Notes: generated by a model not told the origin, from the letters alone. Shown: positions 2 to 29,799, counted from the stretch's first letter. The stretch is DNA of 64,000 nucleotides from a virus (IMGVR_UViG_3300033146_001239:4085-68084); one strand, 5' to 3'. A program made the numbers and translations.

Positions 2-181
2 AGAAATAACAAATTTCAAATGTGCCGAAACTAATTCATCCACAGCATTAGTATCCCCATTCTGTATTCTAATCGCTAATTCTATTTCATCCTCCGATGT
101 TAATTTTTTTTGTTTCTTTTCAATATCTTTAAAATATCTATTAAGACTTTCTTCTTTGGTATCTATAAATTTTCTTTTCAC
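2..181 (-). CDS. Phage-encoded sigma-70/RpoD-family RNA polymerase sigma factor (5' part; continues off the window start)
   Basis: Not in the ORF track. My translation from GTG at 181 is MKRKFIDTKEESLNRYFKDIEKKQKKLTSEDEIELAIRIQNGDTNAVDELVSAHLKFVIS, which fits sigma-70 region 1.2 to region 2.1 (SL..Y..dI...LT.E.E.ELA.RI..GD..A...LV.a.L.FV.S). Confidence 0.8.
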   Translation of the reverse strand, partial: MKRKFIDTKEESLNRYFKDIEKKQKKLTSEDEIELAIRIQNGDTNAVDELVSAHLKFVIS

Positions 182-225: not shown

Positions 226-762
226 CTAATTTTCATCGTCTTTCGTTAATTTGGATAATAATTCTTTATCTCTAGTTGTAAAATTTTGGTATCCTTTATC
301 AATGATTTCATTAATTAATCTTTGTTTTTCTTCATTAGTCATAGACGAAACATCGATTATTTTAGCATCTTCAATATCGGTACCACCAGATATTTTAAAT
401 TTTTCATAATTAGTATTTAATATTTCACTATGTATTCTCATTAAAAAATCTCTAGTTGTCATTTCACTATTTAGATTATTTTTATCAGTTTCCTCAAATT
501 TACCAAATAATGTATTATAGACTGACACACTACCAACATCAACCGCATAATTATTCTTACCAAGTTCAAATAAGAAAAAGCCACGTTTATTCGAAGTGAA
601 AAATTCTTTCAATTCACCAACAGTTGCAACTGTTGAAAACGTAGCTATTACTATATTTTTATGTTCAACGAAATTAACGTCTAATTCAGAAATCGCTCTA
701 ATCTCATCCTTAACACCCATTACTTTCCCTAGAACTATGATACAAAAATTTTTTAAATCCAT
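226..762 (-). CDS. Hypothetical protein; C-terminus resembles the small DUF6576-like helical motif
   Basis: ORF 226..810. The ORF-track start overlaps the promoter at 780-810, so the real start is probably MDLKNF at 762. C-terminus INEIIDKGYQNFTTRDKELL. Confidence 0.55.
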   Translation of the reverse strand: MDLKNFCIIVLGKVMGVKDEIRAISELDVNFVEHKNIVIATFSTVATVGELKEFFTSNKRGFFLFELGKNNYAVDVGSVSVYNTLFGKFEETDKNNLNSEMTTRDFLMRIHSEILNTNYEKFKISGGTDIEDAKIIDVSSMTNEEKQRLINEIIDKGYQNFTTRDKELLSKLTKDDEN

Positions 763-779
763 ATTTTTATTTATATATA

Positions 780-810
780 CAAATATATGAAAAAAATATG
801 GATTTATCAA
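780..810 (-). promoter_or_regulatory. Bacteroidetes-type housekeeping promoter (TTG-N20-TATATTTG)
   Basis: Minus strand TTG ATAAATCCATATTTTTTTCA TATATTTG matches the -33 TTG / -7 TAnnTTTG consensus. Confidence 0.6.
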
Positions 811-812
811 GA

Positions 813-3059
813 TTATTTAACAGTTAACTTGGATATATTACCAGTTTTAATAACCGTTAAAATATTATCTGACCAATCGGCAACTATTTTATTATGGGTT
901 ATAATAAAAATTTTATCATACATCTCATTCATTTTTTGGAATAATAACTCGATATAATCTAAATTAATATTAGCCACTTTACCAAATACTTCATCAAATG
1001 TAATAAAATTAGGTGTTGCTAAGGTAGTTATTCTACCTAAGACAGCTCTTAATGCAATCGCTGACGCTGTTTTCTCAAAACCACTACCAGACTTTAAAGG
1101 TTTAGTAACATCATCAAGTATTATATTAAATTCAACATCATTCTTATCATTAATATCTAATTCAACATCAAAATTACATGTTTCACTTAACAATCTATGA
1201 AGTTCTGAGTTGATAATTGGTAATACTGACCTAAGAATCAATTTACTTATACCTTTTTTCCCAACTAATTCAATATACGTTTTATAAACCTTTTCTATTT
1301 TATCCTCTTTAGTTATTTCTTCTATTAATACCTCTTTTTCGTTAATATCAGTGTTAATATTGGATAATCTATTATTATTTTGATTAATACTATCGTTAAT
1401 TGAGTTTTGTCTAACCATTAATTTAGCAATTTCAGTATCTTCCCAAACAATTTGTGATTCTAACTGTTTATTAGACTCGATAATACTAATATTAAGGTTA
1501 TATTCCTTCAATTGTGCACGTTTTTCGGTTATTTTATTACGAAGACCACCCATTTTCACTTCTAACCTATCGCGGGTTAATTCTAACTTATCTCGTTTAT
1601 TAACAGTTTGTTTATCTTCACTCATACTTAATAATTTAGTATCAATTTCGTTAATTCTATCTGTTAACTCATTAATTGTTGTTTTGGTAACCTCAATAGT
1701 TTTAATATTATTGGAAATAGTTTCACTATTGTCAACATCTTTTAATGGTTGACCACAAGTAGGACATATTTCACTATTTTTTAGATTAATATTTTCAGTC
1801 TCTAATGTTGCAACTTCATTTTCCAATTTACCAACATTAATTTTCAACTCATTACGTTCTTTATTTAAATTGAAATCTAATTCTTCATCATAAACAATGT
1901 CTTTTATCTTCTCAATTTCTACGTTACCAAAATCAACTGATTTCTTAGCTTCAATACCTTCACTAATTAAACCCTCTATTTCGTCACTCAATTTATCTTT
2001 ATCAATTGATAGAATCTTATCATCGATATTATGTTTAGATGCCAATAATTTATCCCTCGTTTTATTATGTTTATCGACTTCTGCTTCATTTTCTGATAAT
2101 TCAATAGCTAACCTTTCATTAACAATATTAATTGATTCTATTTCACTTTTCAAATCATTAATATCTGTTGTTAATGTGGTAATATCATAATGATTCGCCT
2201 TCATTGTTTTAACGAACTTATTATACATATCCCTAACAACCCTTTCCTTCTTCTCAATAGGGTCTAAACCGATAAACTTAGTTAATAATTTACCACGAGT
2301 TGTTGGTAAACTACTAATTAAATCGGTTAGATTATCACTTGTGGCTAAAACCATTAATTCAAAATCTGCCTCAGAACCAATTGTATCTTTAATTTTTTTA
2401 GTTGTTTTAATACCATCCTCACCTTTCAATTCTTCATATTCACCATCTGGTGTTATAATTGAATAACTAACTGAACCCCTAACAGTATAACCATTACCAT
2501 TACGCTTTGGTGTCCTAGTAATTTTACGTTCAATTAAATAATCATCATTTTCAATTCTTATTCCACCCCTAACCACTACTTGATTACTATCACTATATTG
2601 GTTAAATATTTCCTCATTTTTATCAGTTTTAGATGTTGTTCCAAAAAACAAAAATTTTAATGCATCAATAGAGAATGTCGTATTATGAGAAACAATATCG
2701 TTAGAATAAAATTCATGTACTTCATCTACTTGTATATCATATAATGTATCCTTAATATCCATTAAATAACATTCTTTGATTGGTGATAATCCGAATCTAG
2801 TTTGAATTAATTCTCCAGGTTTAGCATTAATTAAATTAATAAACTCATCTTTATCGTTTTTTATTTTATGATAATCAGCACCTTCTACATATAAACCACT
2901 CTCTAACTCACATCTATAAACATCGGCATTTTTTTCAGTTATACCACACCACGTTATATCTTTAAAACCATATTGGGTTTCAACCTTTAACCCTAAATCG
3001 CCATATTTTTGATATATATCGTTTAATTCCCCTATCGTTAATTTTATTTCTTTTTCCAT
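813..3059 (-). CDS. sbcC: IntC split-intein fragment fused to the C-terminal part of an SbcC/Rad50/gp46-like recombination ATPase
   Basis: Residues 1-126 are intein-like and end in LYDIQVDEVHEFYSNDIVSHN. They are followed by T-TFSIDAL (second half of Walker A), a long coiled coil, zinc hook CPTCGQ, signature KSGSGFEK, Walker B FITFDE and H-loop IITHN. Confidence 0.9.
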   Translation of the reverse strand: MEKEIKLTIGELNDIYQKYGDLGLKVETQYGFKDITWCGITEKNADVYRCELESGLYVEGADYHKIKNDKDEFINLINAKPGELIQTRFGLSPIKECYLMDIKDTLYDIQVDEVHEFYSNDIVSHNTTFSIDALKFLFFGTTSKTDKNEEIFNQYSDSNQVVVRGGIRIENDDYLIERKITRTPKRNGNGYTVRGSVSYSIITPDGEYEELKGEDGIKTTKKIKDTIGSEADFELMVLATSDNLTDLISSLPTTRGKLLTKFIGLDPIEKKERVVRDMYNKFVKTMKANHYDITTLTTDINDLKSEIESINIVNERLAIELSENEAEVDKHNKTRDKLLASKHNIDDKILSIDKDKLSDEIEGLISEGIEAKKSVDFGNVEIEKIKDIVYDEELDFNLNKERNELKINVGKLENEVATLETENINLKNSEICPTCGQPLKDVDNSETISNNIKTIEVTKTTINELTDRINEIDTKLLSMSEDKQTVNKRDKLELTRDRLEVKMGGLRNKITEKRAQLKEYNLNISIIESNKQLESQIVWEDTEIAKLMVRQNSINDSINQNNNRLSNINTDINEKEVLIEEITKEDKIEKVYKTYIELVGKKGISKLILRSVLPIINSELHRLLSETCNFDVELDINDKNDVEFNIILDDVTKPLKSGSGFEKTASAIALRAVLGRITTLATPNFITFDEVFGKVANINLDYIELLFQKMNEMYDKIFIITHNKIVADWSDNILTVIKTGNISKLTVK
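2682..3059 (-). mobile_element. C-terminal fragment (IntC, 126 aa) of an atypically split intein
   Basis: Contains a block B-like EGADYHKI, block F LYDIQVDEVHEFYSNDIV and block G SHN, followed by Thr (+1, codon at 2679-2681). Confidence 0.88.
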
Positions 3060-3060
3060 A

Positions 3061-4032
3061 TTATTCTTTTAAAAACTTAATACATTTATTTATAACTTCA
3101 ACCCGATTATTTTTATAATCATATTCATTAACATGTAATACTTGATATCCATCATTAATTATTAATTCATCTCTTTTTTCTTCTCTTTTTTTATTTTCAG
3201 ATGTTTTTCTATGAAAATAAGTTCCATCAAATTCAATTATTTTACCCTTATTCTTAATAAAAAAATCTGGTAAAATGTAACTTTCACCTAAATTTAATCT
3301 ATATTCATGGTTTTTACCACTTAAATCCTTTTTATTATTTAATAAAGTTGCAAAATAAATTTCATTATCTTTAATTAAAGATGGTTCTGTATTTATTATA
3401 TCCCAAAACAAATCTTGTGATATTTTACTAAAATTAACCTTTTTATAATTACTTAACCATTTTCTCTGTCGCTCATTAAAAACTTTAATACCTTCTTCTT
3501 CACCATATTTATTTATACAAATTTCTTTTGAAAATGTAACTTGCCTTTCGGACCGTTTTACTTTAGCTTCCTCTAATGAGTAACCCTTGTTTATCCAATA
3601 TTCTAAACTAGTGCTACCTTTTTTACCATTAAGACTTCTTAATTCCTCTCTTTCATTCCATATTTTAGTCCCATCTTCATCACCAAATCTAGCAATACAA
3701 CCACGTAAAGAAACTAATTTTTGACCTTCTATTTGTAAGATAGCATCTTCCTCACTATACCCACGTTTAAACCAATATTCAATATTAACTGGTCTTAATG
3801 TCTTTATATGTTCTTTAGCTTCTAATTCACTAAACCCACGTTTAACCCAATATTTGGTATTATATGGGGAACCTTTTACTATTTCTACACCAGATTTTAT
3901 TAAACGATTTCTGATTACACTCTCATCAACATTATATTTTTTAGCTATAACATATATAGCTTCAAATTTATTAACATATGAATCAACCATATCATTAATT
4001 TCATCCTCATTAAAATTATACCTTTTTCCCAT
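3061..4032 (-). CDS. Free-standing putative homing endonuclease, Vsr/DUF559-like PD-(D/E)XK fold, with N-terminal HTH and repeated helical motifs
   Basis: C-terminal LPDFFIKNKGKIIEFDGTYFH ... RDELIINDGYQVLHVNE. Three YW.(K/N)(R/K)G(Y/F)S..(E/D)A repeats and two CI..(F/Y)G.E.G.K.(W/F) repeats. Lies between the two halves of sbcC. Confidence 0.8.
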   Translation of the reverse strand: MGKRYNFNEDEINDMVDSYVNKFEAIYVIAKKYNVDESVIRNRLIKSGVEIVKGSPYNTKYWVKRGFSELEAKEHIKTLRPVNIEYWFKRGYSEEDAILQIEGQKLVSLRGCIARFGDEDGTKIWNEREELRSLNGKKGSTSLEYWINKGYSLEEAKVKRSERQVTFSKEICINKYGEEEGIKVFNERQRKWLSNYKKVNFSKISQDLFWDIINTEPSLIKDNEIYFATLLNNKKDLSGKNHEYRLNLGESYILPDFFIKNKGKIIEFDGTYFHRKTSENKKREEKRDELIINDGYQVLHVNEYDYKNNRVEVINKCIKFLKE

Positions 4033-4081
4033 AATTTAATATTTATTAATAAATATACCAGAAAACCAGAAAGGTAAGGGT

Positions 4082-4663
4082 TTATAAAAATTCATCTGGT
4101 ATAAAACCTAACACATCCTTTATTTTATCTAAGTCGACCTTTATAACTACCTCTGTATCAGAACGTAAACACTTACCACCTTGATTTTCTGGAATAGAAT
4201 TAATTATTGTCATTCCCTTTAATTTATCAAAATAAATTGGTTCGTTATCACCGAATGATAATAAATTGTTTATCACTAACCATTTTAAATCCCAACGTAG
4301 ATGTTTAGTTTCAGATTCTTCGAATTCTACCGCAGCATTAACTTTATCATCTAAATTAATTATGTGTTTAAAATTAATTTCAACACCTTCACGTTTTAAC
4401 CATTCCTTAAATAATTCACGCTGATAATTTACATCCATAATATTATCGATACCACTATCACCGATTTTAATTAACTCACCATCTTTATTCTTCCTATTCG
4501 GTCTAAAGATAACGTTAACTTTATCCTTTGCCACACCATATTTATTAGCAAAATATGTTTTAACTTTACTACGCGCTTCTCTAGTATAATTCTCTGGAGA
4601 ATCGTCCCAATAAACTCTAATTTTACCATTCACTGGTATTTTATTATTATTATTATTCACCAT
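4082..4663 (-). CDS. sbcC: N-terminal part of the SbcC/gp46-like ATPase fused to a 29-aa IntN split-intein fragment
   Basis: WDLKWLVINNLLSFGDNEPIYFDKLKGMTIINSIPENQGGK is a typical SMC/Rad50 N-lobe ending in Walker A GGK, followed directly by CLRSDTEVVIK (intein block A) and a stop 29 residues later. Confidence 0.88.
   Translation of the reverse strand: MVNNNNNKIPVNGKIRVYWDDSPENYTREARSKVKTYFANKYGVAKDKVNVIFRPNRKNKDGELIKIGDSGIDNIMDVNYQRELFKEWLKREGVEINFKHIINLDDKVNAAVEFEESETKHLRWDLKWLVINNLLSFGDNEPIYFDKLKGMTIINSIPENQGGKCLRSDTEVVIKVDLDKIKDVLGFIPDEFL
4085..4171 (-). mobile_element. N-terminal fragment (IntN, 29 aa) of an atypically split intein
   Basis: CLRSDTEVVIKVDLDKIKDVLGFIPDEFL*. Cys1 codon at 4169-4171 comes immediately after the Walker A lysine. 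Confidence 0.85.
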
Positions 4664-4922
4664 ATATATCTATTTCTTTATTTTCGTTTCTATTTATTTT
4701 CCCTATATCCCCAACCTCTTTTGTTTTAACTGGTTCAACAAATTTATTTTGTATTGACTTTTCTTTCGTGATTCCCAAATCAACATTTAAAACTTTTGGT
4801 TTATTACCATATTTTTCAATCATAAAGGCATCTCTCAATAATTTATTAATAAAGCTATCAACCTCTAAATTATTAATCTTACAATAATCTCTAATATCTG
4901 ATAATAATTTTTCGTTAATCAC
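4653..4922 (-). CDS. Small hypothetical protein, possibly ribbon-helix-helix-like
   Basis: 89-aa ORF overlapping its neighbours. N-terminus INEKLLSDIRDYCKINNLEVDSFINKLLRDAF. Confidence 0.55.
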   Translation of the reverse strand: MINEKLLSDIRDYCKINNLEVDSFINKLLRDAFMIEKYGNKPKVLNVDLGITKEKSIQNKFVEPVKTKEVGDIGKINRNENKEIDIYGE

Positions 4923-5205
4923 TACTCTTTTCGTCTTTTGTATCCTTAGCTGGACCAGTTATTATATCATCAACTTCTGTTTCTGTTTGATGTAAAATAC
5001 ATAATTCCTTAGTATCTTCATCAACATTTATTTGAAGAATTGGTTTATCAATTCTATAGTAATGCTCACCATTAACTTGACCATATTCACCATTAACTAA
5101 ATTAAATGAATCAAATTCATTTGGTAAAGTGTTTAGGAAATTCTTTAATTCAGCAACCGTTATACTATATTTCCCACTTTCCTCATTTTTTATTTCTTCA
5201 CCCAT
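4915..5205 (-). CDS. Hypothetical protein
   Basis: 96-aa ORF tightly packed in the sbcD-sbcC operon. Confidence 0.6.
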   Translation of the reverse strand: MGEEIKNEESGKYSITVAELKNFLNTLPNEFDSFNLVNGEYGQVNGEHYYRIDKPILQINVDEDTKELCILHQTETEVDDIITGPAKDTKDEKSSD

Positions 5206-5206
5206 A

Positions 5207-6019
5207 TTACTTATTAATTAAAATTTCTTTATTATTATCTAAATCATCTAATGACTTAATTGAAAATTGATAAAAACCATAATTCGTTATTATATCATGT
5301 TCCGTATATTTACCAGTTTCGACATCCCATAATAAAAAACCGTGACCAGTAATTGACTCACCAAAATCTTGTTGAATCAATGACCCACTATATGCAATAT
5401 TAGCATCACCATTTTTAAAATTTTGTCGTAAGTGTATATCACCCAATAATACCATATCACAACCATCAAAATAATTAACACCAACCCCGCTATCGGTAAA
5501 TTCATAACCAATAGATGTTTTTGACCCAATTACTGGTGCATGAAATAATCCAACAATTTTTTTATCTGGATGTTGTTCTCGTGTTTCTTCAATATTTGGT
5601 CTAAGGTTATCCTCGAATATTGAATACACAGCCCACATTATATTCTCATCCTCATAACAAATACTATTTTTAAAATAGTGAATATCATTATTATCGATTA
5701 AATTAATAACTGGCGTTAAAGAATCCATTCTATCTTTATTCTCTTCCAATAAATCATGGTTTCCAGCAATTAAAATTACTGGTGCAATTGAAACTAACTC
5801 AGTGAAAAACCAAGTTAATATATCAGTCAGCTCATTCGAGATAGTTATTTTTTGATGAACAATATCACCTACAACAACAATTCTAACTTCATTAAATTCA
5901 TAATCCGATGCAATTTCTTTCGCCTTAATTATGAATTGTTCAATAATTTCACGATATTCTTCGTGTCTTTTATATGTTCTAAAGTGTATATCGCTAATGT
6001 GTATTAAAGATTTTATCAT
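5207..6019 (-). CDS. sbcD: SbcD/Mre11/gp47-like metallophosphoesterase nuclease
   Basis: Motifs HISDIH, VGDIVH, AGNHD, LFHAPV, LGDIH, YSGSLIQQDFGE. Likely start MIKSL at 6019. Confidence 0.9.
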   Translation of the reverse strand: MIKSLIHISDIHFRTYKRHEEYREIIEQFIIKAKEIASDYEFNEVRIVVVGDIVHQKITISNELTDILTWFFTELVSIAPVILIAGNHDLLEENKDRMDSLTPVINLIDNNDIHYFKNSICYEDENIMWAVYSIFEDNLRPNIEETREQHPDKKIVGLFHAPVIGSKTSIGYEFTDSGVGVNYFDGCDMVLLGDIHLRQNFKNGDANIAYSGSLIQQDFGESITGHGFLLWDVETGKYTEHDIITNYGFYQFSIKSLDDLDNNKEILINK

Positions 6020-6034
6020 AAATATATTTTTTAA

Positions 6035-6065
6035 CAAAAATACTATATTTTTTTAACAATATCAA
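6035..6065 (-). promoter_or_regulatory. Bacteroidetes-type promoter (TTG-N20-TATTTTTG) for the sbcD-sbcC operon
   Basis: Minus strand TTG ATATTGTTAAAAAAATATAG TATTTTTG. Confidence 0.6.
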
Positions 6066-6090
6066 TTAACCACGTATTTATTACTATGTA

Positions 6091-6852
6091 TTAATTTTTT
6101 AATTGTGTTTGGTATTTATGATGCATTAATAATTGTCTAGCCTCATGTTTCATATACATGATTGGAATTTTAGTAAACGATAAATCAGCTTTATTAAAAT
6201 AACCAATCCAAATATGTCTACATTTTTTACCAGTCTCCATTTCCATCATCAACGCGTATGTACTTAATTGTAACGAATATACATTGTATTCACAGTCTTG
6301 TAAATGTGAAAATGGTGGTAGTAATGTTTTATTACCATAATCTGAATAGTAATTTATAACTTTATTCGACTTCCAATCGCCAACGTCAAAAAATTCATCG
6401 TCAACATCGATTATTAAATCAGCCGTACCAGCTATTTTAAACTCTTCTGAGAACATTATTCTTTCTGGATATATCTCAATACCCTCATCAATATTTAAGT
6501 CGTGATAGCCATTTAAAACAGCTCGCTCTAAATCATTTTCTGGAAATAACCATTTATTAGCAAATAAATATTTTTCTAATAGTTCGTGGACACCAGTACC
6601 ATACTCATTAGCAGTATCATTTAAATATTGCCAATATTCGATAATTTGCTCCTTACTCATACCATGATAAATCTCATTATGATGCCTAGTACCAAGTTTC
6701 GCAATAGCTTCAGCTACTTTTTCCGTTTCGAATTCTGGTTCAATAGAAGATAATACAGTAGTAACAGATGTATATTGCTCACCTGTTTCTCTATGAATGT
6801 ATATATGTGGTTCTGGGTCAAGATATACCACAGAGTTTAAACGTTTTGCCAT
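6091..6852 (-). CDS. PD-(D/E)XK exonuclease (RecB/Cas4-like superfamily)
   Basis: YTSVTTVL, YGTGVHELLE, IAGTADL, VGDWKSNK, YSLQLSTY. Likely start MAKRL at 6852. Confidence 0.85.
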   Translation of the reverse strand: MAKRLNSVVYLDPEPHIYIHRETGEQYTSVTTVLSSIEPEFETEKVAEAIAKLGTRHHNEIYHGMSKEQIIEYWQYLNDTANEYGTGVHELLEKYLFANKWLFPENDLERAVLNGYHDLNIDEGIEIYPERIMFSEEFKIAGTADLIIDVDDEFFDVGDWKSNKVINYYSDYGNKTLLPPFSHLQDCEYNVYSLQLSTYALMMEMETGKKCRHIWIGYFNKADLSFTKIPIMYMKHEARQLLMHHKYQTQLKN

Positions 6853-28881: not shown

Positions 28882-29799
28882 TTATGTTCGAACTCTAATT
28901 TCTAATTCTTCTATAGTTATTGAGCATTTACTACCCTTGACCATATTTTCTCTCCACGGTATAAATTCTAAATTATTTATATTACCAATTAATTCTGGTG
29001 ATATACCTTGTTTAAAACCCTCTAATATTGAGAATTTATGGTCCAATTGTTTCGCACCATCAACACCACATAAACCTCTTTCACCATACCCAACTAACAT
29101 TTCAATTGGTTGTTTATTAGTTATTGAATTAACACTTCGCCTATATTTTTCATACTCATTTATTTTAGATAAATATTCATTATATGGTACACCTAAACCA
29201 TACTTATCTTCCGTTCTAACGACACCATGTTTATGTAACACACTATTAATTGTGGTGTATGGTACACCTATTTTTTTACTAATACTTAACATAGACGAAC
29301 CAGATTTATATAATTTTAAAATTTCATCAGTATTTGGGTTATCGTATTCATAAATATTATCTAACGATATACCATTTTCGTGTAATAAATTAATCACTGT
29401 TCTTTTACTACAACCAATTTCCCCACCAACTTCGATTGACGATAAACCACTTTGATATAATCGAATTATATCACCAACATTAAATTTAGACCCCCGTTTT
29501 TTACCAACCTTACTTTCACTAATTGACCTAGTAACACCCATTGATTTAAGTATACGTTGTGGTACTGTTGATGATACACCTAATCGATTACCAATTTCAA
29601 TTGTGGATAACCCATCTTCTAAATACAATTTTCTAATCATGGCATAACGTTTTTCTCGTTCTAATTCGGTTTTACTAACGGTTTCATTAAAAATTCTCCC
29701 ACAACTCTTACATTTATAACGTTGTACCTTATTTTTATCTTTACCATTTTTTTGTGTTTTACCACCACAGTGGATACATTTTAAATTCTCTTTTACCAT
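28882..29799 (-). CDS. Putative HNH-like homing endonuclease with IS1 InsA-like zinc ribbon and three HTH repeats
   Basis: CIHCGG..QKNGK....QRYKCKSCGR; three I..LY..G.S...I....G HTH repeats; C-terminal QLDHKFSI.EGF...I.PELIG...NL...PW.EN..KG. Confidence 0.7.
   Translation of the reverse strand: MVKENLKCIHCGGKTQKNGKDKNKVQRYKCKSCGRIFNETVSKTELEREKRYAMIRKLYLEDGLSTIEIGNRLGVSSTVPQRILKSMGVTRSISESKVGKKRGSKFNVGDIIRLYQSGLSSIEVGGEIGCSKRTVINLLHENGISLDNIYEYDNPNTDEILKLYKSGSSMLSISKKIGVPYTTINSVLHKHGVVRTEDKYGLGVPYNEYLSKINEYEKYRRSVNSITNKQPIEMLVGYGERGLCGVDGAKQLDHKFSILEGFKQGISPELIGNINNLEFIPWRENMVKGSKCSITIEELEIRVRT

Follow-up and report, generated by a model that had tools for sequence, protein, structure and literature searches.

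Naturally occurring inteins can be encoded as two separate polypeptides, and such an intein is regarded as atypically split when its halves lie in separate open reading frames (ORFs), with a short N-terminal piece (IntN) of about 15–37 residues and a long C-terminal piece (IntC) (PMC13014065). The natural examples named in the literature consulted (a 2025 review and the 2023 and 2026 Mootz-lab papers) are PolB16 OarG, VidaL, AceL-TerL and GOS-TerL, to which the consensus intein Cat can be added. AceL-TerL, GOS-TerL and the consensus Cat-TerL derive from phage metagenomes, reside in a P-loop nucleoside triphosphatase (NTPase) and combine an IntN of 25, 37 and 30 residues, respectively, with an IntC of 104–115 residues, the split falling after helix α1 at a site known as ‘S2’ (PMC13014065, PMC11766414). 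S2 has been assigned to AceL TerL and GOS TerL, whereas in VidaL and PolB16 the split comes earlier, after strand β2 (S1) (PMC13014065, 2026). In parallel, Dassa, London, Stoddard, Schueler-Furman and Pietrokovski (2009) described fractured phage genes of DNA metabolism, half of the loci being associated with a family of Vsr-like endonucleases (PMC2677866), and Taylor et al. characterized the ‘EDxHD’ family of Vsr-like homing endonucleases, of which I-Bth0305I (PDB 3r3p) is the prototype (PMC3239194). Here, we analyze a 64,000-nucleotide stretch of viral DNA (IMGVR_UViG_3300033146_001239:4085-68084, hereafter the window), in which a Rad50/SbcC-like ATPase is encoded by two ORFs with a Vsr-like homing-endonuclease gene between them. 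The phage ATPase is very probably rejoined by protein trans-splicing of a split intein of 29 + 126 residues. This reading is built on the anatomy of the locus, on homology and conservation, and on the fold of a contiguous relative, from which we infer the splicing chemistry, its efficiency and the target of the endonuclease.

The window comes from an IMG/VR virus record of 68,084 bp (CheckV completeness, 19; G+C content, ~27%). Three ORFs are arranged head to tail on the minus strand: an N-fragment at 4082–4663 (193 residues), the endonuclease gene at 3061–4032 (323 residues) and a C-fragment at 813–3059 (748 residues). The N-fragment opens with an N-extein of 164 residues (4172–4663), which comprises a conserved N-terminal region and the beginning of a Rad50/SbcC-like ATPase head, up to the Walker A motif ...NQGGK. 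It continues with the 29-residue IntN (4085–4171), which begins at Cys1 (Cys165 of the N-fragment) and is terminated by a stop codon at 4082–4084. A 49-nt spacer (4033–4081) separates this stop from the ATG of the endonuclease gene, whose own stop lies one base from the ATG of the C-fragment. The C-fragment starts with the 126-residue IntC (2682–3059; Met1 to Asn126), recognized from its translation and by the NCBIfam model TIGR01443, with His64 in block B, Asp108 in block F and a terminal His125-Asn126 pair. The remaining 622 residues, from Thr127 onwards, form the C-extein (816–2681; stop codon at 813–815), which by homology completes the ATPase head and contributes the signature motif, Walker B and a coiled coil bearing a CPTC hook. 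Translation bore out the ORF coordinates, the 29-residue tail starting with Cys1 and the 126-residue IntC of the original prediction, together with its sum of 164 + 622 = 786 residues for the spliced product.

The position of the insert is exact. The nearest named-phage record, the 735-kb uncultured phage LR756501.1 (L001), encodes a single 1202-residue Mre11-like/Rad50-like fusion (L001:2026–5634, minus strand). The N-fragment aligns to residues 271–414 of this fusion, up to ...ENQQGK (E 2e-13), and the alignment of the C-fragment resumes three residues further on, at IDA, the 29 and 126 residues having no counterpart. A tblastn search of INPHARED returned distant matches only (six records for the C-fragment and two for the N-fragment, none covering 80%). 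A search for longer proteins with the N-extein gave 65 relatives, all 65 of which read GGK[TS] without an insert; most are 777–814 residues long, compared with the 786 predicted for the spliced product. The closest of these, P0302 (784 residues, intein-free), is 78% identical to the N-extein and 68% identical to the C-extein over 621 residues, the latter alignment starting exactly at T127 of the window protein and T163 of P0302. The insert therefore separates the Walker A Lys from the Ser/Thr that follows it; the +1 nucleophile, Thr127, is itself the P-loop Thr, and excision restores GGK|TT in frame. The original prediction had located the insert at Walker A, and the alignments to LR756501.1, P0302 and the 65 relatives place its boundaries precisely at the GK|[ST] of intein-free homologues.

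This position bears on an alternative explanation, non-covalent rescue, in which the intein fragments lack splicing chemistry and act as a dimerization clamp for the two ATPase halves. There are precedents for assembly of this kind: a Vsr-like endonuclease gene interrupts an SbcD-like gene that has no intein and carries short inserted peptides at the break (Dassa et al. 2009, PMC2677866), and a fragmented ribonucleotide reductase (RNR; NrdA of an Aeromonas phage) is described as assembled via interaction domains (PMC3045599). In the window, however, a break that separates Lys from Thr in the P-loop would leave 155 extra residues inside the nucleotide-binding loop. The ORFs themselves speak to a second alternative, that insertion of the endonuclease gene inactivated SbcC and left two decaying remnants. 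The record is a fragment, so a second, intact copy could exist elsewhere in the genome; a search of this record gave one copy only. Against decay, both ORFs are full length and free of internal stops, and the C-extein retains the identity to the intact homologue P0302 given above.

The identity of the host protein follows from several comparisons. A profile of 30 C-fragments matches the Rad50 structure 5f3w_B (E 5.1e-30) and the SbcC structure of E. coli, 6s6v_C (E 1.9e-27), from position ~125 on. The NCBIfam Rad50 models match the C-fragment with an E-value of 1.4e-12 and with scores far under their curated cut-offs, which suggests that the window ATPase is a distant phage member of the family. 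Pfam returned no family for the N-fragment. Among the features that the original prediction had listed for the C-extein, the putative zinc-hook cysteines are present as CPTC in the coiled coil (1755–1766, minus strand), although the Pfam Rad50_zn_hook model matches this region only below its cut-off (E 0.059; 13.6 bits versus 24.3). With a bipartite ABC head containing Walker A, signature and Walker B, and a coiled coil with a CxxC hook, the predicted spliced product is, as judged from its sequence, a Rad50/SbcC (gp46-type) ATPase.

Class 1 inteins have a Cys or Ser at position 1, an Asp in block F, a penultimate His with a terminal Asn, and a Cys, Ser or Thr at position +1. All of these residues are found at the break. 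Cys1 directly follows GGK and is invariant in 29/29 split N-fragments. His64, Asp108, His125 and Asn126 are invariant in 30/30 split C-fragments, which share as little as 22% overall identity with the window protein. The +1 residue in these 30 proteins is always Ser (21) or Thr (9), and Thr in 18 of the 19 related split viral loci compared with the window. The terminal HN dipeptide is preserved in 97 of 98 relatives that start with IntC. The C1...HN/[CST] hallmarks on which the original prediction relied are thus not only present but invariant across the split relatives. At the level of models, TIGR01443, which describes the intein C-terminus, scores 17.2 bits on the C-fragment and 21.1 bits on IntC alone, compared with a cut-off of 15.6. 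The 30-sequence C-fragment profile, over positions 2–125, matches VidaL (E 5.1e-11), gp41-1 (E 3.9e-10) and CatC (6dsl_B; E 3.1e-7). With its position-1 nucleophile, blocks F and G, +1 residue and in-frame restoration of the host motif, the element is predicted to be a class 1 intein. The same conservation is difficult to accommodate in a dimerization clamp. A pure clamp would have no need for Cys1, HN or a Ser/Thr at +1, and the residues on which splicing chemistry depends, beyond those for docking, are all conserved as listed above; we consider the clamp unlikely.

Structural evidence comes from natural versions in which the intein is uninterrupted. L003/L004 (= L010/L011) and L012/L013 each encode the N-extein, a 151-residue intein and the C-extein in a single ORF, and P0026 is also contiguous, up to the end of its contig. 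The intein of L003 (L003:3908–4363), which is 69% identical to the window in IntC, was folded with AlphaFold2 (AF2) from a 23-row alignment, yielding a model with a pLDDT of 96.9 and a pTM of 0.88. Foldseek identified VidaL (6vgv) as the best PDB match of this model (E 1.8e-11; TM 0.82/0.85). In total, 64 matches were obtained at E <= 1e-3, and, among the matches listed, all are inteins except two BIL-domain entries. The Hint fold expected by the original prediction is therefore seen in the modeled L003 version. Mapped onto this model, the break of the split relatives falls in the loop at residues 22–30, after the helix formed by residues 14–21, which corresponds to S2. The equivalent of the window IntN comprises strands β1–β2 and helix α1, and the likeness to AceL and GOS that had been proposed from the short IntN extends to the split site after helix α1. 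The model supports the assignment of the 29- and 126-residue pieces to one intein domain. Two contiguous variants differ from this arrangement. P0046 keeps the IntN end ...LPDELK and then has an extra linker of ~9 residues before the IntC head, as if the halves had been re-fused, and P0062 is a contiguous intein without the helix α1 segment.

The gene between the halves (3061–4032, minus strand) encodes a free-standing, 323-residue protein that Pfam and fold comparison divide into N-terminal helical/helix-turn-helix (HTH) modules and a C-terminal Vsr-like nuclease domain (residues ~203–323). Pfam DUF559 matches residues 237–321 with 22.3 bits (cut-off 20.6), the NCBIfam Vsr model matches faintly, and the family counts 635 proteins at E <= 1e-3. 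By sequence, no significant PDB match was obtained with the single protein and none at all with a 30-sequence profile, and Foldseek on the predicted model found no match at E <= 1e-3, I-Bth0305I reaching only E 1.4e-2. VIA fold comparison of model residues 203–323 retrieved I-Bth0305I (3r3p_A) with a Z-score of 11.0 and a root-mean-square deviation of 2.5 Å for 94 of 97 residues, followed by a DUF559-like protein (3hrl, Z 10.3) and Vsr (1cw0_A, Z 9.9). The original prediction had called the middle gene Vsr-like, with which both the DUF559 score and the fold match agree. E243, D256, E267 and H274 are invariant in 30/30 aligned endonucleases; the last Asp of the E, D, H, D set is not among the invariant columns. 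In the N-terminal part, model residues 2–48 resemble the HTH of Tc3 (VIA, Z 7.0), and residues ~58–165 contain three to four YW.(K/R)G(F/Y)S..EA repeats, in which W62, G66, W87, Y145, W146 and G150 are invariant among the 30 relatives. The repeats probably form a modular DNA-binding array. Taken together, the model and the conserved residues support a seemingly intact Vsr-like homing endonuclease of the I-Bth0305I (‘EDxHD’) type. A related gene lies between the halves in L037 (5117–6442, plus strand); it matches the window endonuclease over residues 53–195 only (E 1.1e-18) and may combine the N-terminal DNA-binding repeats with a different nuclease domain.

The split arrangement is widespread among relatives. 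Among 31 other proteins of a length similar to the N-fragment, 26 carry the same 29-residue tail, one is contiguous and four are intein-free pieces truncated where their contigs end. Exhaustive HMMER searching with IntC as the query gave 267 cluster representatives at E <= 1e-3, of which the nearest 149 (P0026 excluded) were classed. IntC stands at the beginning of the protein, within ten residues of its first residue, in 98 of these, 95 of which start with Met; it is internal in the other 51, with GK[CS] just upstream in 26. Pfam analysis of 75 of the 149 identified exteins of the SMC_N/AAA_23/SbcC, Terminase_6N and DnaB_C types, and a phmmer search with the window C-extein recognized SbcC-like exteins in 31 of the 149 only. 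The terminase exteins link the window intein to the published TerL inteins as members of one broad lineage.

Locus architecture was compared in 33 viral loci from a contig scan. Of these, 21 are split and carry a related endonuclease gene, four are contiguous, four are split without an endonuclease gene, three are split with a decayed remnant and one is unclear. In the four endonuclease-free split loci (L009, L018, L024 and L035, at about 5040–5160), 22–63 nt separate the halves, and in L015–L017 (5077–5619) a 543-nt gap holds a stop-ridden endonuclease remnant. Both classes look like late stages of a homing-endonuclease life cycle. Intact ORFs and invariant catalytic residues after loss of the endonuclease are hard to explain unless trans-splicing works. 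IntC is better conserved than the protein that hosts it, with 44–73% identity to the window versus 33–47% for the C-extein and the higher value in 19 of 19 split loci; IntN is 29 residues long in 18 of the 19 related split loci. In a few of the relatives, the endonuclease gene is separated from the C-fragment by an extra 110–490 nt (L022, 6164–6566; L028/L029, about 6135–6620; L019, 6176–6288). The decay of SbcC into two remnants is hard to reconcile with this survey, since 28 of the 33 related loci keep the split layout with intact ORFs across a divergence of as much as roughly two thirds of residues, and we regard such decay as highly improbable.

The same loci bear on rejoining at the level of RNA or translation, in which the 1-kb endonuclease segment would be spliced out as an intron or bypassed by the ribosome, and the resulting contiguous intein would then splice in cis. 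Vsr-like endonuclease genes do occur in group I introns, for example those of recA (PMC2677866, PMC3239194), and the original prediction had itself named an intron as its counter-case. Rfam, however, detected no intron or other RNA family at E <= 1 between 600 and 6200, and no more than 49 nt and 1 nt of non-coding DNA lie on the two sides of the endonuclease ORF. The C-fragment opens with an ATG of its own, and all of the 30 relatives compared preserve the IntC head. In the four relatives split by just 22–63 nt, a stop codon and a new start occupy a gap too short for a group I intron. Rejoining before protein synthesis is, in our view, very unlikely, and trans-splicing of the two translated fragments remains the reading that we favor.

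A number of observations weigh against trans-splicing as proposed here. The Hint fold was obtained with the contiguous L003 relative and not with the window's own IntN/IntC pair. By itself, the window IntC has only a weak match in the PDB, to gp41-1 (E 0.055). Pfam Intein_splicing (PF14890) stays under its gathering score of 35.8, both for the window IntC (19.7 bits) and for the L003 intein (27.8 bits), a shortfall that also favors the dimerization clamp; these mini-inteins lack the N-terminal half of this model or diverge from it, and the gathering score is exceeded by several relatives. Of the intein hidden Markov models, the kind of check proposed with the original prediction, TIGR01443 scores above its cut-off and PF14890 below. 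In the customary naming of intein blocks, block B has the consensus TxxH; the residue three positions before His64, usually Thr, is Ala in the window, and Ala (9) or Ser (21) in the 30 C-fragments. A Thr at +1 paired with Cys1 would impose an energetically less favorable thioester-to-oxoester step, and the rate may be low. Finally, the search patterns of the contig scan contained intein motifs, so the proportions among the 33 loci are biased towards intein-bearing ones.

The evidence can be assembled into a sequence of events that would have produced the locus and would operate during infection. An ancestral phage Rad50/SbcC gene may have carried a mini-intein of ~151–155 residues at the Lys–Ser/Thr junction of Walker A. 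A free-standing Vsr-like endonuclease gene would then have invaded the coding sequence of the intein immediately downstream of helix α1, cutting the gene into two ORFs. Two polypeptides would now be made, the N-extein with its 29-residue IntN and the 126-residue IntC with its C-extein. IntN would dock onto a partly folded IntC, thereby completing the class 1 Hint fold. Formation of a thioester at Cys1 would be followed by attack of Thr+1 on this thioester, cyclization of Asn126 and, lastly, rearrangement of the ester to a peptide bond. The predicted products are a 786-residue ATPase with an intact GGKTT P-loop and the free intein pieces. The endonuclease, in turn, probably cuts the endonuclease-free alleles of co-infecting relatives, spreading its own gene.

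The nuclease expected to partner the ATPase is encoded upstream by an Mre11/SbcD-like gene (5207–6037, minus strand), with a Metallophos match at E 2.1e-11 and 36% identity to residues 1–257 of the LR756501.1 fusion (E 2e-44). The nuclease and the ATPase form one protein in LR756501.1 and are separate genes in the window, where two small ORFs (4915–5205 and 4653–4922) lie between them. A homologue of the 89-residue ORF is also found between the Mre11-like and ATPase genes of L003 (3094–3435) and L005 (2063–2359). In L003 (1947–2877, plus strand), the Mre11/SbcD-like gene appears to be broken into two overlapping ORFs of 231 and 82 residues with unrelated residues at the break, the cause of which could be a frameshift, an inserted segment or another fracture. 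A 194-residue ORF (226–810, minus strand) follows immediately after the SbcC gene of the window, on its downstream side, and similar ORFs occupy this position in L003 (6234–6722) and L005 (6247–6876). An ORF that runs past the window start (2–181, minus strand) resembles, judged by eye, region 1.2/2 of a sigma-70-type factor. Farther away, a 305-residue ORF (28882–29799, minus strand) has two HTH matches (HTH_23 and HTH_38) and could encode a DNA-binding protein associated with a mobile element or an endonuclease. Other ORFs of the window match the tail sheath, T4 baseplate, primase, DnaB-like helicase, RecA-like and class II RNR families, and this set of tail and replication genes suggests that the record is a fragment of a large myovirus-like phage. 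A scan of 600–6300 for promoters and terminators was uninformative, with 49 promoter-like sites compared with 43.1 +/- 7.0 in shuffled sequence and one terminator-like site compared with 0.9. Two DNA sequencing runs containing fractions of 0.36 and 0.18 of the sampled words yielded short pieces only, none spanning the locus, and have no bearing on endonuclease-free variants or transcripts.

If the proposed mechanism is correct, an enzyme for recombination-dependent phage replication would be made only after protein trans-splicing. The locus and its relatives also provide a natural series in which to test whether split inteins originate by invasion of an endonuclease gene and persist after its loss. 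The practical interest lies in the short IntN of atypically split inteins, which is prized because it is accessible by peptide synthesis. The present family combines a 29-residue IntN with a Ser or Thr at +1 that belongs to a generic P-loop junction. It appears to be large and untapped: 98 of the nearest 149 representatives start with IntC, and the exteins identified are Rad50-like, terminase or DnaB-like. A broader proposal, which we advance tentatively and find nearly as plausible as its opposite, is that the SbcC clade retains, among living phages, every stage of the process (intein-free, contiguous, endonuclease-split at a non-canonical site, split with a decaying endonuclease, and stably split without one) and that its pairs of a 29-residue IntN and a ~125-residue IntC with Ser/Thr at +1 constitute a large, diverged set of efficient trans-splicers, usable as semisynthetic ligation tools at a junction that need only be GK/T.

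How, then, does the window intein compare with the systems described before? Its endonuclease shares with I-Bth0305I the C-terminal nuclease fold and an N-terminal helical/HTH DNA-binding part, and acidic and His residues are invariant among its own relatives. The home of I-Bth0305I is a recA group I intron (PMC3239194); the window gene is instead free-standing inside a split intein, and no match between the two was obtained at the sequence level. The layout of the locus is that of the fractured genes of Dassa et al., with an N-half joined to IntN, a free-standing endonuclease gene and an IntC joined to the C-half, all on one strand (PMC2677866). The hosts differ: the eight types in that survey are gp41 helicase, IMPDH, DnaE, NrdA, NrdJ, DNA ligase, terminase and one unknown (PMC2677866). 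The terms gp46, SbcC and Rad50 occur zero times in its main text, where the only case related to SbcCD is the intein-less SbcD-like gene (PMC2677866). No description of a split intein hosted by SbcC or Rad50 was found in the literature searched, outside which lie the primary VidaL, AceL-TerL, GOS-TerL and Cat papers and their supplements. The suggestion in the original prediction that the intein may be new stands for that literature and no further. The proposed mechanism is of a kind already known, that of atypically split inteins in fractured phage genes; what the literature searched does not describe is the SbcC/Rad50 host.

Among structurally characterized inteins, VidaL (6vgv) is the closest, both by fold and by sequence, with an E-value of 1.8e-7 to the contiguous relative and the profile match given above. 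VidaL is likewise naturally atypically split and Cys-dependent (PMC13014065). It differs in being split at S1, after strand β2, with a 16-residue IntN (PMC13014065), while the window intein is split after helix α1 with an IntN of 29 residues. The AceL, GOS and Cat inteins differ from the window intein, which is predicted only, in their host, a large terminase as opposed to Rad50/SbcC, and in their nucleophiles, Cys/Cys or Ser/Cys as opposed to Cys1/Thr+1, the window pieces measuring 29 + 126 residues. They nonetheless resemble it in having a short IntN, a split at S2 and a P-loop host, and one of them, CatC (6dsl_B), is matched directly by the family profile.

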